From a virus (lineage: Duplodnaviria; Heunggongvirae; Uroviricota; Caudoviricetes): a DNA stretch of 14,009 nucleotides. Below the pieces are notes generated by a model, which worked only from the letters and a program-made list of their open reading frames with translations, was not told the origin of the DNA and made no database searches. Below, piece by piece: positions 1-14,009 of the stretch. The first letter of the stretch is position 1, and each line of letters begins with the position of its first letter. Both the position numbers and the translations under genes were made by a program. The stretch covers positions 1-14,009 of the IMG/VR virus record IMGVR_UViG_2660237951_000011. One strand, 5' to 3'.

Positions 1-102
1 GCGCTCAGCTGAGCGCTTCACATCACCATGTTTGCTCTGCACCAGCCTGGCAATTTCACGGCTGGACATTGTCACAACACCCTTAGCGGTTAACTGATTC
101 AT
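1..102 (-). CDS. Rha-family phage regulatory protein / antirepressor, N-terminal fragment (gene continues past window start)
   Basis: Minus-strand ATG at 102..100 preceded by GGAG (7-nt spacing). Translation MNQLTAKGVVTMSSREIARLVQSKHGDVKRSAER matches the N-terminal pattern I recall for Rha/ORF6N-type proteins (T-x-SS-x-EIA..L....H..V.R). Only 34 codons visible. Confidence 0.45.
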   Translation of the reverse strand, partial: MNQLTAKGVVTMSSREIARLVQSKHGDVKRSAER

Positions 103-116
103 GCTATTTCTCCATA

Positions 117-2054
117 TCAGGCGGCTGCACCCGCCTTTTGATTTGCACATAATTCAGGAAGATTTGCTTCTACCAGCGCACGAGCGAACGGCGGCGGTAC
201 TGCGTTACCACAGCGCGCTACCTGCTTGTCTTTGGCGTAACGATTGCCGCGATAGTCCTGATCGATAACGTAGCCGTCAGGGAAGCCCTGCGCCTTATAA
301 AGCTCATGCGGTTGCAGCATGCGCATTCCGATATCGACGATCTGGTACTTAACCCCCTCGATCGTCACCAGCCATTCATCCTCGCTATCACCGCAGTAGG
401 TTTCGAGGAATGTCCGGACCTCGCCAACGTGCTGGCCACCAGCGGTAATCGTCGGCATAGGTGTATCCATGGTCTGACCGTCGCGGCAGGTTCCGCGCAG
501 CTTCACCAGGTGCGACGCAACTACCGCGTGGTGATCAACAGTAGTGACTGAGTGGGCAGGCTCATCCATACCAACACCCGGCCCCGTGTAATTCCCACCA
601 TAGTGCTTCGCCAGGAACGCGCTCACCGTTGCAAACTTATTACCACCAGCAGTGACCGTGCCGAGCGGGTTATTCAGTTGAAGAACACGCGGTTCTTGCC
701 CTGGGCGTTCGCCGTACCCCATCTGGATCAGTGTTGGAGTTACCAGCTGCGACTTACCGCCACCACCTGCAGTAATCGTCGCACTCGGTTCGTCAGCCCT
801 GTGCCCAACACTGGCTCCAAACTGGCGGGCGATGACCGGCGCAACCACGCACGCGCGGGACTGCTTGAGGATTGTATGAGCGGGTTTATCCAGCGGGCGC
901 GGCTTTGCCTGGTACTCACTGCCGCCATTGCCAGCCAGGAACGGTGTCAGGGCGGCCTCAACTACGCCAAGCGCATGCCCATTCCCGCCCGGGCGCGCCG
1001 ACGTACCAGCGGTGACAGTTGGTACCGGCTCGGTCACTGGCTGCCCGGTGGCCCCGGTGCGGAATTTAGTAAGATGCGGTACCGCCAGTGCGTAGCCATG
1101 CTTTTTAGTGATGGTCTGCAATGGCTCTAACAACGATTGCCCGCGGAAACAGTCATAACCTCCTTTCGTCGTGGTGTGGTTACACTTCACGATGAAAGGT
1201 GATGCGCTTTCGATAACAAAGCGCTGGATGCCGCGCGCGATACGTTTGAGCGTATTTTCCGCCAGCGGCTTTTTGCGGTCGAAGATGGACCGGGCCGGGA
1301 TATTCCAGTCAATGCACTCCGCCGCGGTACGCCATGGCGCCAGCTTGCCGCTTTGTACTTCCAGTGATTTTGGATCCCCATGAGTCGCTTCAGGCCAATG
1401 AATCTTGCGGCCGTCACAGCGCGTGACCATGAAGAAACGCTTTCTGATCGTCGGCGCGCCGTAGTCACATGCGCGCAGCTCCCGATAATCAACCTCATAA
1501 CCAAGCCCGGCGATCAGCTGTTGCGCCTGCTGGCCGTGCGGCTCAATGGCAAGGAATTCACAAACCTCAGCCAGCGCAGGGTGATTCGCCGCGATCCCCG
1601 TCGACAGCATGCCGACAAATGCCTCGAATGTTTCGCCAGCACGCTCAGGATCTGGGCGTAATTCTTCATCCAGCAGCGGGCCCCATGTCTTAAACTCTTC
1701 GACGTTCTCCAGCATCATGACGCGGGGACGTACTGCCAGCGCCCAGCGCAGGACAATCCACGCCAGCCCGCGAATCTCTTTCTTAACCGGCTTAGCGCCC
1801 TTCGCCTTGGAAAAGTGGCGGCAGTCAGGGCTAAACCAGGCCAGACCGACAGGTTTACCGCTGGTGGCTGCGCTTGGGTCAACGTCAAACACCGACTCGC
1901 AATAATGCAGCGTGTCAGGGTGATTCGTCTTATGCATCGCAATAGCGTTTTCGTCGTGGTTGATAGCGATATCCACGCTACGCCCGATCGCCAGTTCAAT
2001 GCCGGTACTCGCGCCGCCGCCACCAGCAAAGTTATCAACGATAATTTCACGCAT
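117..2054 (-). CDS. DNA (cytosine-5)-methyltransferase, 645 aa, with greatly expanded variable (target-recognition) region
   Basis: Start moved to internal ATG at 2054 (MREIIVDNF), which overlaps the upstream gene's stop. C5-MTase motifs read in order: I FAGGGGASTG; IV SPDCRHFSKAKG (P-C catalytic Cys); VI MMLENVEEF; VIII ACDYGAPTIRKRFFMV; IX MLQPHELYKAQGFPDGY; X GNAVPPPFARAL. About 370 aa lie between motifs VIII and IX. Confidence 0.85.
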   Translation of the reverse strand: MREIIVDNFAGGGGASTGIELAIGRSVDIAINHDENAIAMHKTNHPDTLHYCESVFDVDPSAATSGKPVGLAWFSPDCRHFSKAKGAKPVKKEIRGLAWIVLRWALAVRPRVMMLENVEEFKTWGPLLDEELRPDPERAGETFEAFVGMLSTGIAANHPALAEVCEFLAIEPHGQQAQQLIAGLGYEVDYRELRACDYGAPTIRKRFFMVTRCDGRKIHWPEATHGDPKSLEVQSGKLAPWRTAAECIDWNIPARSIFDRKKPLAENTLKRIARGIQRFVIESASPFIVKCNHTTTKGGYDCFRGQSLLEPLQTITKKHGYALAVPHLTKFRTGATGQPVTEPVPTVTAGTSARPGGNGHALGVVEAALTPFLAGNGGSEYQAKPRPLDKPAHTILKQSRACVVAPVIARQFGASVGHRADEPSATITAGGGGKSQLVTPTLIQMGYGERPGQEPRVLQLNNPLGTVTAGGNKFATVSAFLAKHYGGNYTGPGVGMDEPAHSVTTVDHHAVVASHLVKLRGTCRDGQTMDTPMPTITAGGQHVGEVRTFLETYCGDSEDEWLVTIEGVKYQIVDIGMRMLQPHELYKAQGFPDGYVIDQDYRGNRYAKDKQVARCGNAVPPPFARALVEANLPELCANQKAGAAA

Positions 2055-3381
2055 TGACGGCCCCCTGCATGCTGTTGAAGAGACCACCAGCGGTCGTGAT
2101 AATTTCACTCGTCGGCATACGTTCGAGCCACAGCTGGTTGATATTGGCTTTCAGCTTGTTCTGCTGCGAAACAGGTAGAGCGTCAGCCCCTTCAATCTGG
2201 TTAAACACCAGTCCAACCTCAAGAGGCCAAACGCGCGATTCGTTTAACGCCTTGTCCTTTGATTCCTGCGTCTCACGGACATGGGCGCGGATCCCCCGAA
2301 TATTTGACCATTTGGCTTTATCCAGGCTTTCCATGGTCGCGATGAATTCACTGTGGTTAATGCCGTATTCTTTCGCAGACTCAACGGCAACCGTGCGTAA
2401 CCGCTCTGACATGTCTTGTTTCACGTCATCGCTATCAAAGGGCAATGTTTCCAGCCATGCATTAACACCCACCAGGATGCTCTCGCTGATCAGCTTTTTC
2501 GCTCTGTCGATCGTCAGCGGTGAAACATTGGTAAATTCAGGGTTTTCCAGAGAGTCGGCAGCCCAGGTATGACCAAACTTTGACTCGCTGAAGGTGTACT
2601 CGTCTTTCTTGCCGAACGCCGCGACAACACAGGCCCAAGCCTCTACACCGCTGGTTTCCAGAATGGCTTTTTGGGTTAATGGCAGTTCTGCCTCTGATTT
2701 CTCCGGCACTACCTCAGCGTCCAGCTCCGGCGCCGCATCAGTTTGCGTTCTTCCCACGGCAAATTGGGCCAGCGACATCGCAGCACGGCCTTTGGCCTCC
2801 AGGTCGGTGCGGTTGATGTAACTGAAACGCTCACCCCGCCATGTTTTGTCGAAGACCACGATAGCGCCAGCAAAAAATGCGCTGGTGGGCTGCTGCTTTT
2901 CGTCTTTCGGCACGAACCATGTAGGAAGATCGAAACCAATTCGGCCACGGATGAATGTGACGTGATCTGCCTCTACCGGCCACCACGTTTCACTCGTCGC
3001 AGACTTAATGAGAAAAACGTACCGACCACCCTTTTCTCGCATGGCCATAGCGTGGTTAATGATGTGGGTCATTCCGGTAACGGCCTGCTTGTCGTGGTAC
3101 TGAGAGCGGCTGTAAGGCGGGTTGCCAAACCCGGCACCACCGAGTTCTGCCAGCCGCTCTGACCAATCCTGCATCAGGGCATTATCTTCAGCCGTGTACC
3201 ATGCTGGGCACTTCGCGTTGCTGTCGTCGGCAAAAAGGTCCAACACCAGAGGGCCGAACATCGCATTGATCCCCCAAAACAACAGATCCGGAGTGCGCCA
3301 TTGATCACCGACCTCTTTCAACTCGTGTGCTGGTTTTGAACGGAGTTCAGCTAGTGCACGGCAGTATTTATTTTCCATCAT
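2047..3381 (-). CDS. Phage Dam-family N6-adenine DNA methyltransferase with ~250-aa C-terminal extension of unknown function
   Basis: N-terminal region DQWRTPDLLFW...LDLFADDSNAKCPAWYT...GFGNPPYSRS carries the NPPY amino-methyltransferase motif in a phage-Dam-like context. Start ATG overlaps the upstream stop (ATGA at 3378-3381). Residues ~200-444 show no motif I recognise. Confidence 0.8.
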   Translation of the reverse strand: MMENKYCRALAELRSKPAHELKEVGDQWRTPDLLFWGINAMFGPLVLDLFADDSNAKCPAWYTAEDNALMQDWSERLAELGGAGFGNPPYSRSQYHDKQAVTGMTHIINHAMAMREKGGRYVFLIKSATSETWWPVEADHVTFIRGRIGFDLPTWFVPKDEKQQPTSAFFAGAIVVFDKTWRGERFSYINRTDLEAKGRAAMSLAQFAVGRTQTDAAPELDAEVVPEKSEAELPLTQKAILETSGVEAWACVVAAFGKKDEYTFSESKFGHTWAADSLENPEFTNVSPLTIDRAKKLISESILVGVNAWLETLPFDSDDVKQDMSERLRTVAVESAKEYGINHSEFIATMESLDKAKWSNIRGIRAHVRETQESKDKALNESRVWPLEVGLVFNQIEGADALPVSQQNKLKANINQLWLERMPTSEIITTAGGLFNSMQGAVNA

Positions 3382-4232
3382 CCTCTGAACCCCTCTGGAA
3401 TCTTGCTATCAACCGGACCGAACTTCATCGGGTCATGTTTCTTTTCACCCCAGCTGTCACGCGGTGGCCGCCCCTTCTTGTCCCAGCGGATCCCGCTTTG
3501 CAGATAACCTTCAAATTTTTTCGGACCGAAGAGCGTTTCAGGACGCATGTACTGGTACTGCACGTCATTGCCGTTCCAGTGCTCATGCTTAAGGTCGATC
3601 ACCAGCTGTAAGTCGCTAACGGTGTAACCTTCACGCAGACGAGCACGGATGTTTTCCAGAGAAGTTTTTGATTTTTGGTATCGTGAGCCACTAACCAGGT
3701 TCAGATGATTCAGAACCAGGATGGCGTTATCGGTGATCATCACTTCAGGGTCTGGTTGCGGCGCAACCGGACAAGAAGGTTTTTTAACTGATGGATCAGT
3801 AGTTGTATTTACTGACGGATCCCCCCCAGATTCTGACGGGTGAAAACCGCCTTTTTCATCGTTTTTTGATGCCTCAGATTTTGACGCGTCGGTTTTTGAG
3901 GCATCAGATTTTGATGCGTCAGAATCTGACAGGTGAGAAAAGGCAGCAGCCTGCAATTTAGCAACATTGAGCTGGTAAACGTTCGATGCATTTCGGTTGC
4001 CTTTACGGCGCTGCTGGCGGGTTAACCAACCATCTTTTTCCAGCTGAGATATGGCTGTACGAACCGTGCTCTCACCAGCACCAATCTGGCGCGCGATGGT
4101 AGCGATGGAAGGCCAGCTAACCCCTTCATCACTGCTGAAGTCTGCCAGACGCGCCATGATGGCAACGCTGGATAGCTTCATGCCAGAAGCGGCACAAGCA
4201 TCCCAAACGTAACCCGTTAATTTAGTGCTCAT
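3378..4232 (-). CDS. Phage replication initiator (lambda O-like): N-terminal winged-HTH, low-complexity SDASK-repeat linker, conserved phage replication C-terminal domain
   Basis: 284-aa ORF with RBS AAGGA 5 nt upstream of the ATG at 4232. N-terminus (SVAIMARLADFSSDEGVSWPSIATIARQIGAGESTVRTAISQLEKDGWL) is HTH-like. Central linker DSDASKSDASKTDASKSEASKND is encoded by tandem 15-bp DNA repeats. C-terminal region resembles phage replication-protein C-terminal domains. The family assignment is from memory, not a search. Confidence 0.65.
   Translation of the reverse strand: MSTKLTGYVWDACAASGMKLSSVAIMARLADFSSDEGVSWPSIATIARQIGAGESTVRTAISQLEKDGWLTRQQRRKGNRNASNVYQLNVAKLQAAAFSHLSDSDASKSDASKTDASKSEASKNDEKGGFHPSESGGDPSVNTTTDPSVKKPSCPVAPQPDPEVMITDNAILVLNHLNLVSGSRYQKSKTSLENIRARLREGYTVSDLQLVIDLKHEHWNGNDVQYQYMRPETLFGPKKFEGYLQSGIRWDKKGRPPRDSWGEKKHDPMKFGPVDSKIPEGFRG
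3864..3938. repeat. Four to five tandem 15-bp repeats (consensus TTTTGAnGCnTCAGA) inside the O-like gene; candidate origin iterons
   Basis: Direct reading gives ttttgatgcctcaga / ttttgacgcgtcggt / ttttgaggcatcaga / ttttgatgcgtcaga / atctgacaggtgaga. Each has a near-palindromic 10-bp core TGAnGCnTCA. Position mirrors lambda ori, which sits in the O linker. Confidence 0.5.
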
Positions 4233-4401
4233 GGTCGTCCTTTAACTCTGTAAACTTGCGCTTGAATTGTTCGAGCGGGCTGAAACATTCGTGGTCATAT
4301 CCATCCCGCAGGTAGATAACTCGTTGAGTCTCTGGCTCCCACCTGATAACCCGAACGGGGATCCCTCTGTGGTCTTTGAACCTTCGGTTAACTTCGCGCA
4401 T
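4222..4401 (-). CDS. Hypothetical small protein (59 aa), below the ORF-track length cutoff
   Basis: Minus-strand ATG at 4401 with AGGAAGG about 10 nt upstream; stop overlaps the O-like start by 11 nt. Translation MREVNRRFKDHRGIPVRVIRWEPETQRVIYLRDGYDHECFSPLEQFKRKFTELKDDHEH is protein-like in composition. Several rare Arg codons and competition with an overlapping 126-aa frame lower confidence. Confidence 0.3.
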   Translation of the reverse strand: MREVNRRFKDHRGIPVRVIRWEPETQRVIYLRDGYDHECFSPLEQFKRKFTELKDDHEH

Positions 4402-4573
4402 AAGCGTTTCGCCTTCCTGTAGTAAACCCCCACAATTGCGACCGCCCGACTGTGGTTACATGGCACCCAGCGGTTTGCTATTCTGCGTTCATACCGAAAC
4501 AACGGAGCGCCCGGTACCGGGATCATCCTGAGTTGCGGCAAACGGTTAAAAGCCGTTAAACTGGTCATGCGGA

Positions 4574-5122
4574 TTACTTCTCCATACAAGATTTGTCTGC
4601 CACGACGCCCGGAGCTGCACACTCGCGGGCGTCACCTTTTTCCGGCGCACAAAACACACGGAAAAGCAGCGTCAAATGTTCCTGCCACTTAGCCATCACC
4701 TGATAGCTGTTCTCTTCAATCTGGGCGCGTTCCTGAGCATCAATAACGCCGTCAGCGGTAGCTTTGCGAACGTATTGCGAATGCCTGCCGATCCACTCCA
4801 CTGACTCCATAAGACGCTGGTTGATGTCACCGTTCTCTATTTCTTCAACGTCAGCCAATGGCACGAAAACACCGTTCGAGTGACGTGCAATAGCGTTCGC
4901 TATGTGGTTTGAACCACCAGCACGTTGAAGCACCATCGCCCAACCGAGCGGGAAGATCTGATCGCCATCGGTACGCAGCCGGTTAAACAGCGCGTTCTCG
5001 GTCACACCCAACCACTCAGCAGCTTCTGAATATCCGCCAGGCAGCTCGGTGATCGTTTTTTTGATTGCGGCCACCAGCCAGGCTGGCTGCTTATCTACTT
5101 TCCATTCAGGTTCTATACCCAC
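4574..5122 (-). CDS. Putative CII-like early regulatory protein, 182 aa, GTG start
   Basis: ORF-track start (GTG at 5206) would overlap cro by 62 nt. An in-frame GTG at 5122 sits 8 nt after a strong AAGGGAGG placed right after the cro stop, so I take 5122 as the start. Sits at the cII position (after cro, before replication genes). Contains an HTH-like stretch (GGYSEAAEWLGVTENALFNRL). Family call is tentative. Confidence 0.5.
   Translation of the reverse strand: MGIEPEWKVDKQPAWLVAAIKKTITELPGGYSEAAEWLGVTENALFNRLRTDGDQIFPLGWAMVLQRAGGSNHIANAIARHSNGVFVPLADVEEIENGDINQRLMESVEWIGRHSQYVRKATADGVIDAQERAQIEENSYQVMAKWQEHLTLLFRVFCAPEKGDARECAAPGVVADKSCMEK
4604..4641 (+). terminator. Intrinsic terminator on + strand, antisense to the 3' end of the CII-like gene (OOP-like arrangement)
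   Basis: 8-bp stem 4604-4611 / 4626-4633 with 7 G:C pairs, 14-nt loop, then ACC and TTTTT (4637-4641). Confidence 0.5.
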
Positions 5123-5144
5123 GGCTAGGTCCTCCCTTCTGTGG

Positions 5145-5360
5145 TTATTTCTGATCGCTTGGCGATGTATTCTTGCCATAACGTTCTGGGTTAAATTCCA
5201 GTTCACCAGCAGTTCGATACGCAGCTTCAGCAGCTCGTCCTTTTGGGATTAAGCGTCCGGGGCGGTTACGCCACTGGTAAACGGCCTCACTGGTGATGCC
5301 AAAAAATTCGGCAACTTTTTCAGTGCTGCCGAAATGTTGTTCAATCTCGTCGGTTGTCAT
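5145..5360 (-). CDS. cro: Cro-like HTH repressor (71 aa)
   Basis: Small basic HTH protein (FGSTEKVAEFFGITSEAVYQWRN) transcribed divergently from the CI repressor gene. AGGAGG lies 4 nt upstream of the ATG. A sigma70-like promoter TTGACC-17-TAATAT is on the minus strand at 5416..5388. Confidence 0.7.
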   Translation of the reverse strand: MTTDEIEQHFGSTEKVAEFFGITSEAVYQWRNRPGRLIPKGRAAEAAYRTAGELEFNPERYGKNTSPSDQK

Positions 5361-5373
5361 GAAGCCTCCTTAG

Positions 5374-5437
5374 CTAAGTTTGGTTAGATATTAATAACCA
5401 ATCTAACTTTGGTCAATAAAAACTAAGATTACTTAGT
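5374..5437. promoter_or_regulatory. OR-like operator/promoter region between cro and cI
   Basis: Three related boxes: CTAAGTTTGGTTAG (5374-5387), CTAACTTTGGTCAA (5403-5416) and perfect palindrome ACTAAGATTACTTAGT (5422-5437). The first two overlap the start site and -35 of the cro promoter. Confidence 0.6.
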
Positions 5438-5459
5438 CTTTTTTAAACTTGGTGCTTTC

Positions 5460-6086
5460 ATGGAAACGGTTGGTCAGCGCATTAAAGCCCTACGTAGGGT
5501 TACAAGAACCTCTCAAAAAGAACTGGGTAAGTTCTGCGGGGTTAGTGACGTAGCGGTGGGTTATTGGGAAAAGGATGTGAATATCCCAAACGGTGAATCG
5601 CTGGTTAAGCTGGCGAAATTCTTTAACACATCAATAGATTACATTCTTTACGGCACTGAATTTGAAGGCACCCTCATAACTAAAATGAGGCGTGTCCCGG
5701 TGATTTCATGGGTTCAAGCTGGGCAGTTCACGGAATGTAAAGCCGCTGATTTGTTCAGTGATGTCGATAAATGGGTTGAAACATCACTTCGCATTGGGGA
5801 TAACTCGTTCGCTTTAGAGGTCAAAGGGGATTCAATGACCAATCCAAATGGCCTCCCAACAATCCCTGAAGGGGCAACCGTTATTGTTGATCCAGATGCC
5901 GAACCCCTTCATGGCAAGATTGTGGTTGCGCGTCTTGATGGCACTAATGAAGCGACTGTTAAAAAACTTGTCATTGATGGCCCACAAAAATTTTTAGTGC
6001 CACTAAATCCTCGCTACCCCAACATCCCGATCAATGGTAACTGCCTCATTATTGGCGTTGTTAAAGGCGTTCAGTACGAACTCTAA
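5460..6086 (+). CDS. cI: CI-type prophage repressor, N-terminal HTH plus C-terminal S24 (LexA-like) autocleaving peptidase domain
   Basis: N-terminal HTH (TSQKELGKFCGVSDVAVGYWE). Ala-Gly cleavage site in VQAGQF. Ser nucleophile in GDSM and the Lys of the dyad in ATVKKL. Divergent from cro across an operator region. Confidence 0.9.
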   Translation: METVGQRIKALRRVTRTSQKELGKFCGVSDVAVGYWEKDVNIPNGESLVKLAKFFNTSIDYILYGTEFEGTLITKMRRVPVISWVQAGQFTECKAADLFSDVDKWVETSLRIGDNSFALEVKGDSMTNPNGLPTIPEGATVIVDPDAEPLHGKIVVARLDGTNEATVKKLVIDGPQKFLVPLNPRYPNIPINGNCLIIGVVKGVQYEL

Positions 6087-6104
6087 TCCCTTCCCACTCT
6101 TCCT

Positions 6105-6169
6105 CTAAGCATCAAGCTAAGTTTAGTTTGATGTTTTCACTTGACCAGAAAACTAAGTTAAGTTAGATT
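6105..6169 (+). promoter_or_regulatory. OL/pL-like promoter and operators downstream of cI
   Basis: TTGACC (6141-6146), 17-bp spacer, TAGATT (6164-6169). The spacer and -10 overlap the near-palindrome ACTAAGTTAAGTTAGAT. Further CTAAG boxes at 6105-6109 and 6117-6130 belong to the same half-site family as the OR boxes. Confidence 0.5.
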
Positions 6170-6528
6170 TTTTTCTGTCGGCACCAAACCACCGCGCCTG
6201 ATGTGGTTAAAAGCAGGCCAAAGCAATAAGACGTGTTCCCTGTTCTGGCTGCTCACTTTCCCCTTGAGGGTGACAGCCAGCTTTTTAAGGGCACAACAGG
6301 CGAGAGCATTGCTGATTATCGGACTGCGTGAGACGCGACGCGGTAAAGCAGGTAAACAGTGCTCTCACCGTTGTGGTAATGCGGCTCTGCGCACGTGACG
6401 AGGCCAACAAGTTTTTATTTCAACTTTTGAAATGAATACGTTTCTTGTGGTGTAGCGTCGCCGGTTCTGGCCGGTCCGGCAGGTGGAGGCACCACCGCCA
6501 CAACAACATCATTGCTGTGTGTAGTCTT

Positions 6529-6557
6529 TGCCCATCACATCGGTGGGCACCTTTTTT
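6529..6557 (+). terminator. Intrinsic terminator-like hairpin inside the leader upstream of the first accessory gene
   Basis: 8-bp stem TGCCCATC / GGTGGGCA (one G:U pair), 5-nt loop, then CC and TTTTTT (6552-6557). Confidence 0.45.
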
Positions 6558-6713
6558 ACACAAGAGACAAGGGCATCACCGGGCGACGGGCTCATTCCCC
6601 AATCCACCCGGGCAAGAGGATAGCGATTGCAGTCGCCGACAAATGCAGGTGCCCTTCTCTGTTGTGTATGGAGAAAGTTCGGCGGTGGCAGCCGCCATAA
6701 CGAGGGTAAAACC

Positions 6714-7085
6714 ATGAGTAATGACCGCATGACCGTAGTGCCCGACTTTTTGGGCGAGCTGGATGCCGGTGTGTTCATGAACAAAATCGCGGCAGCACTT
6801 AACACCACCGCGCTTGGCGTTCTGAACAACGGCAACAAAGGCAAAGTAGTCCTCACCTTTGATTTTGAGCGTATGGGTAATTCCGTTGAAGAGAAGCGCG
6901 TCAAGATCAAGCACAAGCTGAACTACAGCACCCCAACTCCGCGCGGTAAAGCCTCCGAAGAGGACACAACCGAAACCCCTATGTGGGTTAACAAAGGCGG
7001 GAAGCTAACCATCCTCCAGGAGGATCAGGGGCAACTGTTCGGGATCACCGGCGCGGTGGACGGAAAGCTTAAAGCGGCTCAGTGA
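6714..7085 (+). CDS. Hypothetical protein (123 aa), first gene of the accessory operon; YfdP-like by position
   Basis: ATG at 6714 with GAGGG 7 nt upstream. The ORF-track start at 6627 has no RBS. Typical codon usage. YfdP assignment is by gene order only, not sequence recall. Confidence 0.6.
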   Translation: MSNDRMTVVPDFLGELDAGVFMNKIAAALNTTALGVLNNGNKGKVVLTFDFERMGNSVEEKRVKIKHKLNYSTPTPRGKASEEDTTETPMWVNKGGKLTILQEDQGQLFGITGAVDGKLKAAQ

Positions 7086-7141
7086 TCCGCAACAACAAAC
7101 TCACTGATACCACTTTGATCATCAGTTAATAAGGAATTTTT

Positions 7142-7969
7142 ATGTCTCAGTTAGACAGCGGCACCTTCAAGCAGGTCAAAGACCTGGTCCTTTCCGGTTA
7201 TCACCTGAATGATATTCATGGCCTGGCTTGCCCGACCGCATTACTGCCAGAGGGTACTGGCGTTGAAAGCCTTGAGCGCTTTTCTCTGGAACGTTTCCGC
7301 TTTCGTGGCGCAATGACCACAACCAGTATTGACGACTTCGCACGTTATTCTAAAGGTTATGCCAGCGCCAGCGAGCCAGCTCGTTGCTTCATTGACGCTG
7401 ACAACATGACCGCCCGTTCAGTGTTCAACATCGGCACCCTGGATAACCCCGGTCACGCCGATAACGTTGCTTCAATCACTCTGAAGAAAACCGCCCCGTT
7501 TCGCGCGCTACTACAGATCGATGGTCAGCGTCTGAAACAAAAGCAAATCGCTGAATGGCTGGAAGACTGGAGTGATTACCTGCTGGCGTTTGACGCTGAT
7601 GGTAAGACGATGGAGATTTCTCAGGCGGCTCAGGCCGTGCGTCGTATCACTATCCAACAAGCAACCCAGCAGGATCATGAAACTGGTGATTTCGCTGGTA
7701 AAAAATCACTCATGCAAAGCGTCGAAGCAAGCAGCAAAGACGTAATGCCGGTAGCGTTCGAATTCAAATGTGTGCCGTATGAAGGTCTGGGCGAACGCCG
7801 CTTTAGCTTGCGTAACAGCCTGCTGACCAGCGATGAACCCTGCTTTGTTCTGCGCATCGTCCAACTTGAAGCCCAGGAAGAAGCAATCGCCAACGAATTC
7901 CGCGATTTACTGATCAGCAAGTTCGACGGTGAATCAGTGGAAACTTTCATCGGTAACTTTAAAGCCTAA
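7142..7969 (+). CDS. Hypothetical protein (275 aa); YfdQ/DUF2303-like by position
   Basis: AGGA 7 nt upstream of ATG. No recognisable catalytic motif. Lies immediately upstream of the YfdR-like gene, as in the yfdP-yfdQ-yfdR order I recall for the CPS-53/KplE1 prophage of E. coli K-12. Confidence 0.6.
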   Translation: MSQLDSGTFKQVKDLVLSGYHLNDIHGLACPTALLPEGTGVESLERFSLERFRFRGAMTTTSIDDFARYSKGYASASEPARCFIDADNMTARSVFNIGTLDNPGHADNVASITLKKTAPFRALLQIDGQRLKQKQIAEWLEDWSDYLLAFDADGKTMEISQAAQAVRRITIQQATQQDHETGDFAGKKSLMQSVEASSKDVMPVAFEFKCVPYEGLGERRFSLRNSLLTSDEPCFVLRIVQLEAQEEAIANEFRDLLISKFDGESVETFIGNFKA

Positions 7970-7981
7970 TTGCTCTGCATT

Positions 7982-8008
7982 AAATCCCCGGCGCCGCGGG
8001 GATTTATT
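7982..8008 (+). terminator. Hairpin / possible terminator or attenuator after the YfdQ-like gene
   Basis: Inverted repeat AAATCCCCG-gcgccg-CGGGGATTT (9-bp stem), followed by ATT. Located 13 nt after the stop codon. Confidence 0.4.
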
Positions 8009-8097
8009 GAAGCGTAATTCCATTAATTATCGCCATCCGGCGAGGGATTCGTGCAACCAAAATCTGCGCGGTGCAGCGCGCCAATATGGAGAAAACC

Positions 8098-8637
8098 ATG
8101 AGCTACATTCAGACATTATCCGGCAAACACTTTAATTACCTCGATATCCAACAGGACGATATCGTCATCGAGGATATTGCTACTGCGCTGTCTCATATCT
8201 GCCGTTTTGCTGGGCATCTTCCTGAGTTTTACAGCGTCGGCCAGCATAGCGTTTTAACCAGCCATCTCGTTCCGCAGGAGTTTGCCTTAGAAGCACTGCT
8301 TCATGATGCCGCCGAAGCCTACCTGCAAGATATTCCCTCACCGCTTAAGCGCCTGTTACCGGATTACCAGGTGATCGAAGCTCGCGTAGACGCTGCTATT
8401 CGCCAGAAATTTGGCCTACCGACGGAGCAACACCCAACAGTGAAATATGCCGATCTGGTGATGCTCGCCAGCGAACGCCGCGATTTTGAGATTGACGAAG
8501 GTTCCGTGTGGCCATGCCTCGATGGCGTTGTCCCGACGGACCTATTCATCATCAATCCAGTTCGTCCAGGCCAGTCATACGGCATGTTCATAAATCGCTT
8601 TAATGAGTTGATGGAGCAGCGTCAATGCGCCGCATGA
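8098..8637 (+). CDS. yfdR: HD-domain phosphohydrolase, YfdR-like 5'-deoxynucleotidase
   Basis: HD motif visible: H-x(n)-HD in LSHICRFAGH...YSVGQHSVLTS...EALLHDAAEAYLQDIP. Strong end-to-end resemblance to my recollection of E. coli YfdR. Start at 8098 (GGAG 6 nt upstream), not the track start at 8071. Confidence 0.7.
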   Translation: MSYIQTLSGKHFNYLDIQQDDIVIEDIATALSHICRFAGHLPEFYSVGQHSVLTSHLVPQEFALEALLHDAAEAYLQDIPSPLKRLLPDYQVIEARVDAAIRQKFGLPTEQHPTVKYADLVMLASERRDFEIDEGSVWPCLDGVVPTDLFIINPVRPGQSYGMFINRFNELMEQRQCAA

Positions 8638-8801
8638 AGGTAAAAGAACTCGTGGCGGAGGCGTTTGCCTCCGTGGCTGAATTGCCACCAAAGCATGCAT
8701 CGCTTATGCGCGAAGTCGCTACCAGGCTTGAAGCTACGTTCGCAGCATTAACCGAATCATTGGCGCAACTGGAACAGGAACGTAAAGGTAAAACGCAATG
8801 A
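8634..8801 (+). CDS. Hypothetical small protein (55 aa), below ORF-track cutoff
   Basis: ATG overlaps the yfdR-like stop (ATGA at 8634-8637) and its own stop overlaps the next start (ATGA at 8798-8801). Translation MKVKELVAEAFASVAELPPKHASLMREVATRLEATFAALTESLAQLEQERKGKTQ is helical-looking. Confidence 0.45.
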   Translation: MKVKELVAEAFASVAELPPKHASLMREVATRLEATFAALTESLAQLEQERKGKTQ

Positions 8802-9052
8802 CCGTATTTGAATATCTCCAGGGCCACCCGAACGCCACCAGCGGTGAAATCGCAAGGGCGATGGGTAAAAAGACGCCAGCCGTAGCCAGCGCACTATCTC
8901 AGCTTTATGCAACAGGGAGAATTGTTAAGTCTGGCGCACGCGGTGGGATACCGACATACCGCGTCAATGATCTGCCGTTTGGATGCAGCAATAACTTAAC
9001 GCTGATATTTAACCAGCTTCTGCGAAACGTCCGCAAAGGAGCAGCCCAATGA
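8798..9052 (+). CDS. Hypothetical small protein, possible winged-helix DNA-binding fold (84 aa)
   Basis: Translationally coupled on both sides. The stretch SGEIARAMGKKTPAVASALSQLYATGRIV looks HTH-like. Confidence 0.55.
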   Translation: MTVFEYLQGHPNATSGEIARAMGKKTPAVASALSQLYATGRIVKSGARGGIPTYRVNDLPFGCSNNLTLIFNQLLRNVRKGAAQ

Positions 9053-9366
9053 GCAAATTTACGGCATTACCAGTAGAACGCGACCAATACGGCTACTGGA
9101 CTCACCCCGTCTATGAGCAATTTTGCGATGGTCGTGAATTTATCTCACCTGATGAGTTCAACGCCTGGCTGGATAAAAACGGCCTCGAATGGACGGTAGT
9201 TTACCGGGATGAAGAAGACATCGATCCTGAAGTTGATGGTTACGATATTTCAGCCTGGCAGCCAGAATCGCCAGCCGGTGAAGGTTGGTTTGTCGGTTCA
9301 ATTCACAACACCGAAGATGGCGCGGTATGCATCTGGTTACGTAACGTTGAAGGCGGTGCAGCATGA
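9049..9366 (+). CDS. Hypothetical protein (105 aa)
   Basis: ATGA overlaps at both ends. Acidic, Trp-rich. No family recognised. Confidence 0.6.
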   Translation: MSKFTALPVERDQYGYWTHPVYEQFCDGREFISPDEFNAWLDKNGLEWTVVYRDEEDIDPEVDGYDISAWQPESPAGEGWFVGSIHNTEDGAVCIWLRNVEGGAA

Positions 9367-10121
9367 CAGTCCATACACTGAAGCAATGCCGCCCGGACCA
9401 AGAAGAAACCGAGTATTTCTGGAAGTTGTTTCATGCGGCACAACGGAATGACGCTCGCTGGCACGGTAGTGAAATCAGCATTATCGCCGATGAACTATCC
9501 CGGACGGATTTAGATCGTAATCAAAAACTGTTTCTTCTCCGTGCCTGGCAAGTGCTGGTAGACGACAAAGGTGGATTCGGGCGCTTGATGGGTGCCTTTG
9601 ATACTTACGTCTACAACATGCAGGACCCTGATGATGACTGCGTAGCCTGGAAGCCTGAACTGGCTAAGCTGCTACAGGATGGCAATCTGTTTGATGTTGT
9701 GCTGACGGCATATCAGGAGGCCTGCCATGAGGGGATCGTTAATTGGGAGGCAGCGGTATCTCTTTCTGAGGAAAACGTAGAACTGAAGCGCAAACTCTAC
9801 GCAGCAGAGAATCAAATAGCAGAACTGGAGGCGCGGACGTTCAATCCTGCAATTCTAGATGTGATAGCAGAGCGCCAGCGGCAGAAAGCCGTTGAGGGCT
9901 GGACGTCTGAGCATGACGACAAATACGGAAAATCGCAGTTGTTGTGGGCATCCTCATGCTACGTCCTGAACACCATCCAGCCGTTTAACCGCATTCCGAT
10001 GGACTGGCCGTGGGCACCCGAATGGTGGAAGCCGACAGGCCCGCGCCGTGACCTGGTGAAAGCTGGCGCGCTTATTCTGGCTGAAATTGAACGCATAGAC
10101 CGCCAGGAGGCAGCACAATGA
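9363..10121 (+). CDS. Hypothetical protein with central coiled-coil (252 aa); possibly Ea22-related
   Basis: ATGA coupling at both ends. Coiled-coil segment EENVELKRKLYAAENQIAELEAR. Trp-rich C-terminus. Confidence 0.6.
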   Translation: MTVHTLKQCRPDQEETEYFWKLFHAAQRNDARWHGSEISIIADELSRTDLDRNQKLFLLRAWQVLVDDKGGFGRLMGAFDTYVYNMQDPDDDCVAWKPELAKLLQDGNLFDVVLTAYQEACHEGIVNWEAAVSLSEENVELKRKLYAAENQIAELEARTFNPAILDVIAERQRQKAVEGWTSEHDDKYGKSQLLWASSCYVLNTIQPFNRIPMDWPWAPEWWKPTGPRRDLVKAGALILAEIERIDRQEAAQ

Positions 10122-10771
10122 GCAACATCAACAAACAGGCGCTGCGTGAAACGGCGGATGCAGCAAACAAAGCCTCGTGGGGCCGTTGGGAATCATATCA
10201 TCCACACAAAGGCGCGCGGGGCCACGAGGTCAAGGTAGGGGTAAAAGCAATCGCCCAGCACTGCCTCAAGGTTGATGCAGAATTCATCGCCGCATCCAAC
10301 CCCGCCACTGTGCTGGCGCTGCTGGATGAGCTGGAAACTAAAGACAAGCGTAATGCGGAGCTGGAAGACCTTCTTGAAGCTGAAATTAAGTCATGGATGC
10401 AACGGTACGATAGTGCAAATAACCGAAGAGAAGCCGCAGAGAAGCGCAACGCAAAATTACAAAGCGAGAATGCATACATCCGCAACCGGTTCAAAGAACT
10501 GGACCTATTAATCGGGAAAAACATTCTGGTCATGCAGGCTGCGATTATCGAATGGCAGGCAACTGGCGACGCTAAGAGCGGACTGGCATGGATTTATAAC
10601 ACACTGTTTGGCCCAGGCGAATTGCCGGACGAATCTGAGAAAGATGCTCAGGCCTACTTTGACCGCAAATATGCACCGATTGACGAAGAGCTTATGGCGC
10701 TTCACAAGTGGTTTTGGGAACAAAGTGAAGCCGAACGTGCCGCCGCTGGCATTGGCGTGAAGGGGGAGTGA
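10118..10771 (+). CDS. Ead/Ea22-like protein (217 aa)
   Basis: N-terminus MSNINKQALRE... and the ATVLALLDELE segment match my recollection of lambda Ea22 (MSEINSQALRE..., ...VLELLDERE). Central coiled-coil. AGGAGG RBS. Assignment from memory, not a search. Confidence 0.6.
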   Translation: MSNINKQALRETADAANKASWGRWESYHPHKGARGHEVKVGVKAIAQHCLKVDAEFIAASNPATVLALLDELETKDKRNAELEDLLEAEIKSWMQRYDSANNRREAAEKRNAKLQSENAYIRNRFKELDLLIGKNILVMQAAIIEWQATGDAKSGLAWIYNTLFGPGELPDESEKDAQAYFDRKYAPIDEELMALHKWFWEQSEAERAAAGIGVKGE

Positions 10772-10772
10772 G

Positions 10773-11045
10773 ATGAAAAAATACCTCAGTAATTTAGCGA
10801 GCATGTTGCAGGGTATTGCAGGTGTAATTTCAGACGGCGAACGAGTGCAAACTGAGTGTCCTCCGCATTTAAAATCTGCGCTACTTGAGGCGTCTCATGC
10901 GCTGGATGGTCAATCAGTCAGGGTTAATTACCCACCAAATGGGAAACCGGAAATCGTAAATGCTCGCGGCAAGCATCGGCAGTTAACTTTCCGGGAACGG
11001 ATTGCTATTCGCCTTCTCGGCGGCAGAACGGAGATTAGGCCATGA
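10773..11045 (+). CDS. Hypothetical protein (90 aa)
   Basis: GGGGGAG RBS 4 nt upstream. Stop overlaps the next start (ATGA at 11042-11045). Confidence 0.55.
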   Translation: MKKYLSNLASMLQGIAGVISDGERVQTECPPHLKSALLEASHALDGQSVRVNYPPNGKPEIVNARGKHRQLTFRERIAIRLLGGRTEIRP

Positions 11046-11578
11046 CAACTAACCACCCGGCGCACGGTCCTGTATCAATAGATCGCCTGCACCAGATACG
11101 CGAAGTACTCAGCAAAGCAGCAGCACAAAGCGACGGCGGTAATCTCGGCTACGCAATGGCTGATGCTGTCAAGGTGATTGATAAGGCTATTGCTGCGTTT
11201 AATGCGGAGCTTTATGTTCCTACCGTTCAGTGCTGGTCATGCAGAGAGGTTATTGAAGTTTCCGCAGTAGGTGACTGTGATGGTTATTGCCCGAAATGCG
11301 ACTCGCCAATTGATCTCGATGAAGAGCCATACGATGCCGCCATACTTCAGGCTGGCAACTCTCCGGTGATTCCGGATGGTTGGAAACTGGTACCGATTGT
11401 GCCGACGGAGAAGATGGTTATCGAAGGCTTCGAGTCGGAGCCAGACGAATTCTTCAGTAAATCTGAAGTGTGGGAGGCGTATCAGAAAATGAGTGGCTGC
11501 GAACAAGCGGCGCATCGGGCCAAGTTATGCTGGGCAGCGATGATCTCAGCAGCACCACAACAGGAGGTGAAGCTGTGA
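11042..11578 (+). CDS. Hypothetical zinc-ribbon protein (178 aa)
   Basis: Two CxxC pairs, CWSCREV...CPKCDSP, spaced like a zinc ribbon. Translationally coupled on both sides. Confidence 0.6.
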   Translation: MTTNHPAHGPVSIDRLHQIREVLSKAAAQSDGGNLGYAMADAVKVIDKAIAAFNAELYVPTVQCWSCREVIEVSAVGDCDGYCPKCDSPIDLDEEPYDAAILQAGNSPVIPDGWKLVPIVPTEKMVIEGFESEPDEFFSKSEVWEAYQKMSGCEQAAHRAKLCWAAMISAAPQQEVKL

Positions 11579-11814
11579 CTAAATCAGAATTCCTCCAGAA
11601 GGTAGCGGTGCTGGCCGGTGAATGCCATAAGTTGGCCTGTGAGCTGGACATAGGCGATGAACGAATAGAGATGTTCGAGATTTATGAAGTGCTTCGCCGA
11701 ATCCAGCGGAGTGGTGCAGCCGGTGAAATGCTGGCTGCAACAAACCCTTTACTATCCCCTGGAATACCTGAGGACACTGAATGGGTAAATTTCCATAAAG
11801 AGGATCATGCCTGA
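11575..11814 (+). CDS. Hypothetical protein (79 aa), GTG start
   Basis: GTG at 11575 overlaps the upstream stop (GTGA) and is preceded by AGGAGG at 7-nt spacing. The ORF-track start at 11470 lies inside the upstream gene and has no RBS. Confidence 0.5.
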   Translation: MTKSEFLQKVAVLAGECHKLACELDIGDERIEMFEIYEVLRRIQRSGAAGEMLAATNPLLSPGIPEDTEWVNFHKEDHA

Positions 11815-11990
11815 TGCCTAAGACAATCATCATAACCTTAGAAATTGATGTTCCGGAACACGCTACCGATAGCGACATATCAGATTGGGTAGACGTCGAG
11901 TACGGGCAGTGTGGTGGACAAAAATTAGATAACCCCTGCCGTGGCGATGCCACCGAAGTAATAAACCATTCATGGAAATTTGAGAGCTAA
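11814..11990 (+). CDS. Hypothetical small protein (58 aa), below ORF-track cutoff
   Basis: ATG overlaps the upstream stop (TGATG). Translation MPKTIIITLEIDVPEHATDSDISDWVDVEYGQCGGQKLDNPCRGDATEVINHSWKFES. Fills an otherwise unexplained 180-bp gap in a tightly packed operon. Confidence 0.45.
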   Translation: MPKTIIITLEIDVPEHATDSDISDWVDVEYGQCGGQKLDNPCRGDATEVINHSWKFES

Positions 11991-11992
11991 AG

Positions 11993-12565
11993 ATGAACGA
12001 CTTAATGATTGACCTCGAATCAATGGGGAAAAAGCCAAACGCGCCGATCGTCTCAGTTGGTGCTGTCTTTTTTAACCCTCAAACAGGTGAACTTGGCCAA
12101 GAATTCTATACAGCCGTCTCGCTTGAAAGCTCAATGGATCAAGGCGCGGTACCGGATGGAGATACGATTCTTTGGTGGCTAAAACAAAGCCCTGAAGCGC
12201 GCTCAGCTATCTGCGTTGATGATGCGATGCCTATCACTGATGCACTGTCGGAACTTAGCCATTTCATTCACCGGCATGCATATAATCTCAAATACATGAA
12301 GGTCTGGGGTAACGGGGCCACCTTTGACAATGTGATTTTGCGCGGAGCTTACGAACGCGCCGGACGCATTTGCCCGTGGGAATTTTGGAACGATCATGAT
12401 GTACGAACGATTGTTACCCTCGGTCGCAGTGTTGGTTTCGATCCGAAGCGTGACATGCCTTTCATTGGCGATGTTCACAACGCCCTGGCTGATGCGCGCC
12501 ATCAGGCAAAATATGTGTCAGCAATTTGGCAGAAAATTATCCCTGCCACCAGCACCAACGAGTAA
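11993..12565 (+). CDS. DnaQ-like (DEDDh) 3'-5' exonuclease
   Basis: N-terminal MIDLESMG (Asp-x-Glu) and C-terminal HNALADARH (His/Asp) match the acidic-residue pattern of DEDDh exonucleases. Lies directly before xis-int. Confidence 0.7.
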   Translation: MNDLMIDLESMGKKPNAPIVSVGAVFFNPQTGELGQEFYTAVSLESSMDQGAVPDGDTILWWLKQSPEARSAICVDDAMPITDALSELSHFIHRHAYNLKYMKVWGNGATFDNVILRGAYERAGRICPWEFWNDHDVRTIVTLGRSVGFDPKRDMPFIGDVHNALADARHQAKYVSAIWQKIIPATSTNE

Positions 12566-12609
12566 ACCACACAGCCCGGGTGCAGCCGGGCTTTATGGAG
12601 AAGGAAACC

Positions 12610-12819
12610 ATGGCAAAGCTAATGAAAGCGAGTCTCTGGAGTAAACGCGAATTTACCAAAGACTCCATTCCTGACAACCGTACAATAAAACGTTGGGTCG
12701 AAAACGGATTACTCATGGGAAGGATTGTAGATGGTTCAGTTTTTGTCTATGAAACCGAAAAGTGGGGAGTTGACTCAATTGTTAATCAGGCGGTACGTCA
12801 GTTAATAATTGAGGGTTGA
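12610..12819 (+). CDS. xis: Excisionase-like recombination directionality factor (69 aa)
   Basis: Start moved to ATG at 12610 (GGAGAAGGAAA RBS). Pattern W-x(n)-P-x(n)-RWVENGLL...G...V.E parallels lambda Xis. Stop lies 2 nt before the integrase ATG. Confidence 0.6.
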   Translation: MAKLMKASLWSKREFTKDSIPDNRTIKRWVENGLLMGRIVDGSVFVYETEKWGVDSIVNQAVRQLIIEG

Positions 12820-12821
12820 CC

Positions 12822-14009
12822 ATGGCAGCAAGGCCACGAAAAAAAGAATACCGCCACCTTCCTGATTATCTTTTTTTTGATAAAGATCGTGGCGTGTATA
12901 AGTTCACGCTTATAACTGGGAAAAAGAAAACTCTAGGTTCGGATCGAGTAATGGCTATCGCCATCGCCCGAGAATATAACCTGAGGATGCGCCCTGAAAA
13001 TACACCATCGATAGATTCATTAATTCGGGAATCGGGAGGGCTGAATGGTGAAGCCCACCCGTTTTCTGAACATGTTGATCGCATTATGGAGAGAGCTATC
13101 AAAGATGAGCAACCGTCTAAAAGCACACTTGACGATTGGAATAATGATGCCATCAGGGTTAAAGAATTTTTTAATAACATACCCGCATGCGACATTGAGC
13201 TTGAGCACGTAAATGCCTACATACGAAATTACCATTCTGAATCGTCGGCCAATGTTCAGAACCGAAAAGTTAGCTTCCTGAAAAAGCTATTCTCTTATGC
13301 TGTTGATGAATCGCTAATGATGGATAACCCTGCAACACGGAAAAAAATGCGGCGTGTCGATAAAAAGGTCCGCCGGCGACTTACTTTGGAGCAGTTCCTG
13401 GCCATACATGCAGCTGCTGAACCCTGGCTGAAGACAGCAATGGACCTTGCATTACAAACTACTCAAGCACGCCTGGAAGTATCCCGGATCCGGTACTCGA
13501 TCAAGGAACCTCAAGAAGGAGTTTGCGGCTGTGTATGGTTCGATCAGGAAGAGGCTGGCATATTCGGAACGCTTTACATTCATCGGCAAAAAGTGCAACA
13601 CAAAGAGGCCTCTCACGTTGCAATTCCGATCGGCAGGGCCCTGAAAGAGATCATCGACAATAGCAGAGACAATGTGGCCAGTCCTTATGTTGTTCACCGG
13701 CTTTTGGAAAAGAGAAGCAATCCGATAAGCAAGGAAGTTAACCACCCAACACAGGTGGCCCCTGATTATTTGAGCAGAGCATTTTCAGAGCTGCGGGACC
13801 GGATAGGTATAGCGGCAGAATTACCTATCAAAGAAAGGCCAACTTTCCACGAGATTAGAGCGCTGGCGGCTCATATTTTCGAAAGACAAGGTATCGATCC
13901 GCAGGCAAGGATGGCCCATAGTGATGCAAAATCGACAAAAATTTATACCCAGAACCATGTTGAATGGGTAGAAGTTCCTCATGCTGAAATTGTCTTTAAA
14001 GCCGGGTGA
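12822..14009 (+). CDS. int: Lambda-family tyrosine integrase
   Basis: Alignable by eye to lambda Int: N-terminal arm-binding region (RKKEYRHLPDYLFFDKDRGVYKF vs lambda RRDLPPNLYIRNNGYYCY), and catalytic-region R...H-x-x-R...Y (HEIRALAAH, KIYTQNH). ATG at 12822 with GAGGG RBS; the track uses TTG at 12816. Stop is the last codon of the window. Confidence 0.9.
   Translation: MAARPRKKEYRHLPDYLFFDKDRGVYKFTLITGKKKTLGSDRVMAIAIAREYNLRMRPENTPSIDSLIRESGGLNGEAHPFSEHVDRIMERAIKDEQPSKSTLDDWNNDAIRVKEFFNNIPACDIELEHVNAYIRNYHSESSANVQNRKVSFLKKLFSYAVDESLMMDNPATRKKMRRVDKKVRRRLTLEQFLAIHAAAEPWLKTAMDLALQTTQARLEVSRIRYSIKEPQEGVCGCVWFDQEEAGIFGTLYIHRQKVQHKEASHVAIPIGRALKEIIDNSRDNVASPYVVHRLLEKRSNPISKEVNHPTQVAPDYLSRAFSELRDRIGIAAELPIKERPTFHEIRALAAHIFERQGIDPQARMAHSDAKSTKIYTQNHVEWVEVPHAEIVFKAG

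Follow-up and report, generated by a model that had tools for sequence, protein, structure and literature searches.

Closest described systems

Phage N6-adenine methyltransferases of the PF05869/TIGR01712 family are widespread in a short form of 295–299 amino acids (aa), which consists of a catalytic domain, a Pro/Ala/Glu-rich linker of ~25 residues and a 64-aa tail, and which includes Sb44 of phage ST64B, the 'mtase' of phage phiNP and proteins of hundreds of enterobacterial prophage clusters. The subject of this study is a 444-aa Dam-family protein encoded in a 14,009-nucleotide (nt) stretch of DNA referred to here as the window (positions 1 to 14,009 of IMG/VR virus record IMGVR_UViG_2660237951_000011, Caudoviricetes). 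Its catalytic domain is 74–80% identical to those of ST64B Sb44, the phiNP enzyme and two short prophage Dam proteins, and it has the same 64-aa tail and the same position after an O-like replication gene as the short forms. It differs from the short forms in an additional block of ~150 aa (~residues 233–379), termed the insert, between the linker and the tail, and this long form is rare. The features central to the analysis, all on the minus strand, are the following.

2047–3381, minus strand: phage N6-adenine methyltransferase (Dam), complete 444-aa open reading frame (ORF) with both add-on modules, from the ORF list and translation
2785–3327, minus strand: catalytic Dam domain, residues 19–199, with NPPY at residues 87–90, from PF05869 and TIGR01712
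2686–2784, minus strand: linker 1, residues 200–232, Pro/Glu/Ala-rich, variable and gapped in alignment, with AlphaFold2 (AF2) predicted local distance difference test (pLDDT) values <50
2245–2685, minus strand: insert module, ~residues 233–379, a predicted all-alpha fold of eight helices, whose conserved core reads ESK[FY]xHTWAADS
2050–2241, minus strand: tail module, residues 381–444, a predicted three-helix bundle with the motif WPxEV...Q..L...INxxWLE...II, from phrog_16025 and AF2
2047–2054, minus strand: 8-nt overlap of the Dam stop (TGA) and the C5 start (ATG), ATGCGTGA, read from the sequence
117–2054, minus strand: 645-aa C5 cytosine methyltransferase (C5), matching PF00145 at E 1.3e-20

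The tail also has relatives outside of the Dam proteins. Stand-alone proteins of 85–94 aa (phrog_16025; for example, P0190 from Klebsiella and P0179 from E. coli) are 43–54% identical to it and share its invariant W, P, E, V, Q, I, N, W, L, E and I residues. Their genes immediately precede a homologous C5 gene and overlap it, stop codon with start codon. These proteins are free and have an extra N-terminal helix region of ~20 aa, whereas the module of the window is the Dam C terminus. In Pectobacterium phage ZF40, the C5 enzyme gp21 has an N-terminal extension of ~70 aa (MSIWPTEVQQ...HGMFLRR) that is a distant homologue of the tail and is positioned in the same way with respect to C5 motif I. 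ZF40 also has an amino-methyltransferase gene upstream, gp20, a separate gene for a small methylase of the 'DMCCGS...FDPPH' type, but in this phage it is the C5 enzyme, not the upstream methylase, that includes the module in its polypeptide chain.

C5 methyltransferases made of two polypeptides, with the catalytic motifs split between the chains, are represented by M.AquI alpha/beta and M.EcoHK31I alpha/beta. They resemble the present case in that a piece found in one chain is encoded elsewhere as a separate adjacent or overlapping polypeptide that associates non-covalently. The split in M.AquI and M.EcoHK31I divides the catalytic motifs, whereas the tail of the window matches no methyltransferase profile. 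The possibility that the tail is the catalytic fragment of a split C5 enzyme was rejected because the C5 ORF contains both the PF00145 N terminus and the C-terminal QGFPD and GNAV motifs. As read from these profiles and motifs, the tail is predicted to be an accessory domain rather than a catalytic fragment.

The insert has its closest counterparts in ParB-like prophage proteins (Pantoea phage AH07 gp48, P0123, P0126 and P0127), which carry a C-terminal eight-helix module that is 37–42% identical to it. In these proteins an N-terminal ParB-like region with HTH_ParB replaces the methyltransferase, the tail is missing, and the downstream genes vary.

The interpretation preferred here, which we hold with about even confidence, is that a shift of a gene boundary gave Dam a C5-associated docking module, the tail, and that the insert is a separate, rare module. 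The tail coding sequence keeps its place upstream of C5 motif I whichever ORF hosts it, which suggests a domain working with C5.

Two modules in the C-terminal extension

The preliminary description of this DNA, made from the sequence alone, had reported a C-terminal extension of ~250 aa lacking any recognizable motif, and database searches bore this out. Residues 200–444 (window positions 2047–2784) had no Pfam match even at E ≤ 10 and no NCBIfam match, and comparison with PDB sequences, by single sequence and by profile, gave nothing better than E ~1. In PADLOC, only the short-form Dam model matched, and that model already contains the tail. The extension of ~245 aa consists of two autonomous alpha-helical modules, insert and tail, on flexible linkers, so the earlier suggestion of a fused separate function holds in the form of two separable modules. 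In linker 1, the AF2 values below 50 were found at model residues 1–11, corresponding to protein residues 220–230. The boundaries of the modules, their distribution, their gene neighborhood and their purifying selection are established here, and their folds are predictions.

The two modules occur independently of each other. The relative P0016 has the insert and lacks the tail, and the insert was present in 40 and absent from 40 of 80 IMG/VR loci with a Dam-fused tail. Presence of the insert was independent of a downstream C5 gene, which was found with 34 and missing from 6 of the loci with the insert, compared with 33 and 7 of those without it. Compared with the short-form protein P0018, the protein of the window is 98% identical in the tail and ~80% identical over the whole alignment, which points to an exchange of modules at the linker.

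Literature on C-terminal domains of phage Dam proteins, M.EcoGII and M.EcoGIX, the ZF40 methyltransferases and multispecific prophage C5 enzymes, as far as it was covered, which was in part, describes neither module.

Attachment and conservation of the tail

The tail belongs to a large family. It is matched by phrog_16025 at E 4.5e-15, and the family has 964 matches, many of which are stand-alone prophage proteins of 85–94 aa. An alignment of 46 sequences showed invariant residues at W12, P13, E15, V16, Q34, I41, N42, W45, L46, E47 and I54. The AF2 model comprises three helices with a pLDDT of 84.6, and the ratio of nonsynonymous to synonymous substitution rates (dN/dS) of the tail core is ~0.06, which indicates purifying selection.

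The family was found in three states of attachment: as a free protein, as the C terminus of three unrelated types of amino-methyltransferase, and, in the case of a distant relative, as the N terminus of ZF40-type C5 enzymes. In addition to Dam, the carriers include an MT-A70 enzyme in Klebsiella grimontii (L141; Pfam E 6.5e-23) and the small 'DMCCGS...FDPPH' methylase in Pluralibacter, Atlantibacter and Superficieibacter loci (L109, L116, L122, L127 and L128). The ZF40-type extension is carried by ~30 IMG/VR relatives, most of which read ...INQMFLNR. A hidden Markov model (HMM) of the tail matched the ZF40 extension at E 1e-5 in a single-target test, and hhalign aligned the tail with the ZF40-type extension over 51 columns with 94% probability and E 1.3e-7. 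The reciprocal HMM, built from the ZF40-type extension, recovered the free tail protein of Klebsiella at E 6e-5.

A role of the extension in DNA binding, which had been raised earlier, found no support: searches of Pfam, NCBIfam and predicted folds detected no DNA-binding domain in it, and by residue count the tail of the window is slightly acidic. The peptide 'NQLWLER' was considered as a motif for binding the beta clamp and was rejected, as it is missing the terminal hydrophobic residue, is located within predicted helix 2 and has the counterparts RMWLEK and QMFLNR in relatives.

Genomic association of the tail with C5

The Dam and C5 genes of the window overlap by 8 nt at 2047–2054. The overlap of stop and start codons that the preliminary description had taken for translational coupling was confirmed in ATGCGTGA, and coupling itself is probable from this arrangement. 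The phiNP Dam and C5 genes have an identical 8-nt overlap.

Where the tail is encoded as a stand-alone gene, it abutted a C5 gene encoding 471–660 aa and homologous to that of the window in all 11 places sampled, with an overlap, as called, of 4 nt in ten of them. The phages that show this adjacency differ in their replication modules (lambda O/P, DnaC-like or DnaB-type), and a stand-alone tail adjoins C5 in Klebsiella phage 5 LV-2017 too. In the E. coli type, the stand-alone tail gene is flanked by C5 and by a gene for an MT-A70 methylase, while in two Klebsiella loci (L091 and L092) no methyltransferase ORF is found immediately upstream of the tail. At ~3170–3400 of the same two loci, upstream of the tail gene, the reverse-frame translation reads '...LVEHWTLNPLVAGSNPS...', a pattern that we take to be typical of tRNA genes, and a tRNA gene may be embedded there.

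The association was examined further in 59 tail loci, each sampled from the genome of a different species. An intact C5 gene was located directly downstream of the tail in 46 of them, remnants of C5 in 5, and none in 8. When the tail was free or was carried by a protein other than Dam (39 loci), C5 was intact in 35, a remnant in 1 and absent from 3; when the tail was fused to Dam (20 loci), the corresponding numbers were 11 intact, 4 partial and 5 without C5. A C5 homologue was also found downstream of the tail in 67 of the 80 IMG/VR loci, and all 7 phage records with a C5 sharing 68% identity or more with the enzyme of the window have the tail.

One variant, P0014, has the Dam tail running straight into C5 (...SMQG-PS-MREIIVDNF...). 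This read-through equals the loss of one G from the minus-strand run of five G at window positions 2061–2065, 7 nt upstream of the C5 ATG. A sequencing error may account for it, or fused and unfused genes may readily interconvert by mutation at this point.

The insert module

Among 1.84 billion cluster representatives scanned exhaustively with HMMER, just 17 clusters contained the insert. Full-length inserts were carried only by PF05869 Dam proteins or by ParB-like proteins with HTH_ParB, and always at the C-terminal side. The genes for the ParB-like carriers are in the same slot as Dam, after O-like replication and PerC-like genes. Two inserts appeared to stand alone (P0137 and P0138), being located directly after a 223-aa HTH_ParB ORF or at a contig edge, and in our reading these are split versions of a fused ParB-insert gene. 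The genes downstream of the ParB-plus-insert proteins varied (RusA, DUF968/HNH and ORFs without assigned function), and no conserved partner gene was found among them, suggesting that the insert tracks its N-terminal partner and the genomic slot rather than a downstream gene.

AF2 predicted eight helices for the insert with confidence, and searches for relatives of this fold found none, the best Foldseek match in BFVD having E 0.63. Helical replication-initiation domains of the DnaD and DnaB(Bsu) type were among the candidate relatives considered for the insert. In canonical ParB proteins, a C-terminal dimerization domain occupies the position at which the ParB-like carriers have the insert. 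Because the positions are equal, the insert may conceivably serve in oligomerization or partner binding.

Two further arrangements were observed at insert loci. In AH07 (L003, 3182–5256), the gene after gp48 encodes 251 aa and bears the annotation archaeosine tRNA-guanine transglycosylase. It may encode a DpdA-like enzyme of DNA 7-deazaguanine modification, which would make gp48 a DpdB-like partner. The 405-aa protein P0009 is an in-frame chimera in which Dam extends into the insert as far as ...LPFDSED and is followed by the C-terminal ~85 residues of C5; it represents either a deletion between the Dam and C5 genes or an assembly artifact.

The C5 methyltransferase and its repeats

The C5 ORF matches PF00145 at its N terminus, and its translation ends with ...QGFPDGY... 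and ...GNAVPPP... motifs. Residues ~300–560 form a very long variable region with six 'P..T[IV][TL]' units, at 314, 346, 394, 426, 466 and 535, that resemble target-recognition domains (TRDs). These units are similar to the conserved Thr-[Leu/Ile/Val] motif of TRDs and, as a series, to the tandem TRDs of the multispecific C5 methylases of Bacillus phages. By this analogy, the C5 enzyme may methylate several motifs. The C5 homologues range from 471 to ~720 aa, a range that we attribute to differing numbers of TRD-like units.

The units include the peptides TITAGG (at 426 and 535), TVTAGG (at 466) and TVTAGT (at 346). In Dam, the peptide EIITTAGG reported within the last 20 aa was found at residues 426–433, with the following location of its terminal part.

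2083–2100, minus strand: ITTAGG, residues 428–433, read from the sequence

Proposed mechanism and alternative explanations

In the proposed mechanism, the tail coding sequence would stay directly upstream of the C5 catalytic domain while the ORF that carries it changes. The Dam ORF would have acquired the tail when stop and start positions shifted at a linker, and the insert, a separate module, would have recombined in at the linker. The overlap of the Dam stop with the C5 start would probably couple C5 synthesis to that of Dam, and the tail would bind the C5 enzyme. As one outcome, the Dam C terminus would tether the adenine and cytosine methyltransferases, which would produce N6-methyladenine (m6A) and 5-methylcytosine (m5C), respectively; as another, the tail would supply in trans what is an N-terminal domain of C5 in ZF40. 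The more specific proposal that the tail is a dedicated docking domain of an m6A and m5C methyltransferase complex in temperate Enterobacterales phages, or a trans-acting N-terminal subunit for C5 activity or target choice, is possible but rather doubtful. The idea of a partner-interaction module, which had been put forward from the sequence, is favored by the location of the tail directly 5' of C5 in most loci and by its distant relative in ZF40-type C5 enzymes, from which we infer contact between tail and C5. Both a physical interaction and an effect of the modules on methylation are proposals.

Several observations weigh against the docking interpretation. The link to ZF40 amounts to ~20% identity over 51 columns. 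The tail was found without a downstream C5 gene in ST64B, in which RusA is downstream of the tail-bearing Dam in place of C5, in 13 of the 80 IMG/VR loci and in 8 of the 59 species loci, and Klebsiella phage ST13-OXA48phi12.4 has a stand-alone tail without a C5 neighbor. The dN/dS of the tail did not differ between loci without and with a downstream C5 (0.056 and 0.057), which suggests a role independent of the adjacent C5 gene. No tail accompanies the more distantly related C5 enzymes of Aeromonas, Burkholderia and Pseudomonas phages; C5 homologues outside Enterobacterales thus do without it, and the tail is not generally required by the C5 family. Mirror-tree analysis gave rho values of 0.62 for tail and Dam, 0.43 for the tail and the C5 N-domain, and 0.77 for Dam and the C5 N-domain, all three being physically linked, and did not favor C5 over Dam as the co-evolving partner of the tail. 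For the insert, no similarity to a known ParB C-terminal domain was found in sequence or fold; dimerization is suggested by its position.

The main rival to docking on C5 is that the tail is a general helper domain for whichever methyltransferase carries it, acting, for example, in self-association or in bringing the enzyme to a factor of the host or the phage, the replication machinery for instance, with the adjacency of C5 reflecting conserved gene order. Fusion of the tail to three unrelated amino-methyltransferase families agrees with this, as do the equally strong selection where no C5 follows, the retention of the tail in the large ST64B lineage with its downstream RusA, and the location of the genes directly after the replication module. 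A helper for its own carrier is, however, difficult to reconcile with free-standing copies, which can act only by binding another protein and which directly precede C5 in every one of the 11 sampled places, including L091 and L092, where no methyltransferase ORF is immediately upstream; nor would it account for the ZF40-type phages, which have the module inside the C5 polypeptide. With these points taken together, we regard the general helper role as unlikely. A much less probable explanation is that the extension is an inert relic or an artifact, in which downstream genes were joined to Dam by frameshift or assembly error and are without function when fused. Truncated, chimeric and read-through variants do exist in the databases (P0002, P0006, P0009, P0014 and P0017), and so do split ParB and insert ORFs, but the intact 444-aa ORF recurs in 13 E. 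coli genomes, three phage records and 40 IMG/VR loci, the tail is under purifying selection and both modules give confident predicted folds. These findings make the relic explanation very improbable.

The preliminary description had also proposed that Dam ends in the same peptide as the C5 repeats and that the extension might be a module shared with them, while cautioning that a six-residue match could be chance. It is the caution that was supported. The peptides are ITTAGG in Dam and T[IV]TAGG in C5, and only the 4-mer TAGG is common to them. A single DNA-binding or recognition element common to both enzymes would explain the presence of TAGG in both proteins, and TAGG appeared in only ~1% of shuffled Dam sequences, although this was a post-hoc test. 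On the other hand, Dam and C5 have five 4-mers in common, and at least one shared 4-mer is expected from shuffling, as 96% of the shuffled versions of Dam have one. When the tail was aligned locally with C5, the best score was 23, whereas shuffles averaged 28.6 and 485 of 500 scored at least as high; the whole extension scored 33 against a shuffle mean of 34. The residues at the ITTAGG positions vary freely among tail homologues (TVAGG, SVAGG, TAASE, ALAAG and AAAGS), and in the predicted structure the motif is in the middle of helix 3 of the bundle (AF2 model residues 51–70). A common element is the least probable of the explanations considered, close to negligible, and the resemblance between the Dam tail and C5 is a chance one. 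The docking of the tail on C5 is retained as the preferred reading, at the strength given above.

The Dam ORF and its annotation

The assignment of a Dam-family catalytic domain to roughly the first 190 aa, with NPPY near residues 87–90, proved accurate. PF05869 matched residues 19–199 (E 1.7e-42; 145.4 bits compared with a cutoff of 28.1), the equivalog model TIGR01712 (phage_N6A_met) matched residues 16–197 (199.9 bits compared with a cutoff of 97.05), and NPPY is located at exactly 87–90. In an alignment of 12 homologues, N87-P88-P89-Y90 and D48, L49, F50 and D52 were invariant; we interpret D48–D52 as a putative S-adenosylmethionine-binding motif. On these matches the 444-aa protein is an orphan phage N6-adenine methyltransferase with predicted m6A activity. 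The full-length gene was present in 13 of 5426 complete E. coli genomes at 96.6–99.8% nucleotide identity, where it is annotated as 'phage N-6-adenine-methyltransferase', and the intact ORF occurred also in the three phage records and 40 IMG/VR loci.

Public phage records (PP925827, PP925821 and sb44 of ST64B, NC_004313) name the Dam protein 'phosphoadenosine phosphosulfate (PAPS) reductase'. This label is a propagating annotation error, and its source is probably phrog_33262, a fusion profile of which only the Dam part (profile positions 283–490) matches.

Genomic setting of the window

The window corresponds to the early region of a temperate phage of enterobacteria. The order of genes in the minus-strand operon is cII-like gene, 126-aa ORF, O-like gene, 444-aa methyltransferase and 645-aa C5 methyltransferase, and the left 5.1 kb of the window is 97–98% identical to Escherichia phages Flotzy and Eeyore. 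The other features of the window are the following.

3378–4232, minus strand: O-like replication gene, with helix-turn-helix and Phg_2220_C domains
Between the cII-like gene and the O-like gene, minus strand: 126-aa ORF
4574–5206, minus strand: cII-like gene
5460–6086, plus strand: cI-like repressor
7142–7969, 8071–8637 and 11993–12565: early-left region genes (DUF2303, YfbR-like and Rv2179c-like)
Plus strand of the window: Ead/Ea22-like and exoribonuclease genes
12816–14009, plus strand: integrase

Among the early-left genes, the DUF2303 protein was identified at E 1.9e-65 and the Rv2179c-like 3'-5' exoribonuclease at E 6.9e-72, and a weak match to a YfbR-like 5'-deoxynucleotidase was below the Pfam cutoff. 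Tandem repeats were observed at 3859–3923 in the O-like gene, either as four copies of a 15-nt unit or as two copies of a 30-nt unit, with the consensus TTTTGATGCGTCAGA. In lambda-like phages, origin iterons are located within the replication-initiator gene, as are these repeats. No P-like or DnaC-like loader gene is found in the window between the O-like gene and Dam. The extension was considered as a substitute for a helicase loader of the lambda P type and was rejected, since no similarity supports it and the phages with the short form are likewise without a loader gene.

Implications

Orphan methyltransferases of prophages shape host methylomes and aid in the evasion of restriction, and the non-catalytic parts of these enzymes are almost unstudied. 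The present analysis defines two uncharacterized domain families in such a protein, neither of which has a Pfam or NCBIfam model, removes the misleading clue of the ITTAGG peptide, and accounts for the labeling of fragments of the Dam region as 'DNA methyltransferase' or 'PAPS reductase' by annotation pipelines. As a kind of finding this is no surprise, since phage methyltransferases can be expected to carry modular accessory domains; what the pattern of fusion and fission of the tail adds is the prediction of one particular partner, the C5 methyltransferase encoded next to it, which probably has multiple targets. If this is true, the drift of the tail among a free protein, the C terminus of an upstream methylase and the N terminus of C5 would be a natural Rosetta-stone record of their interaction, and the insert would add a further layer of oligomerization or recruitment that is common to ParB-like proteins.

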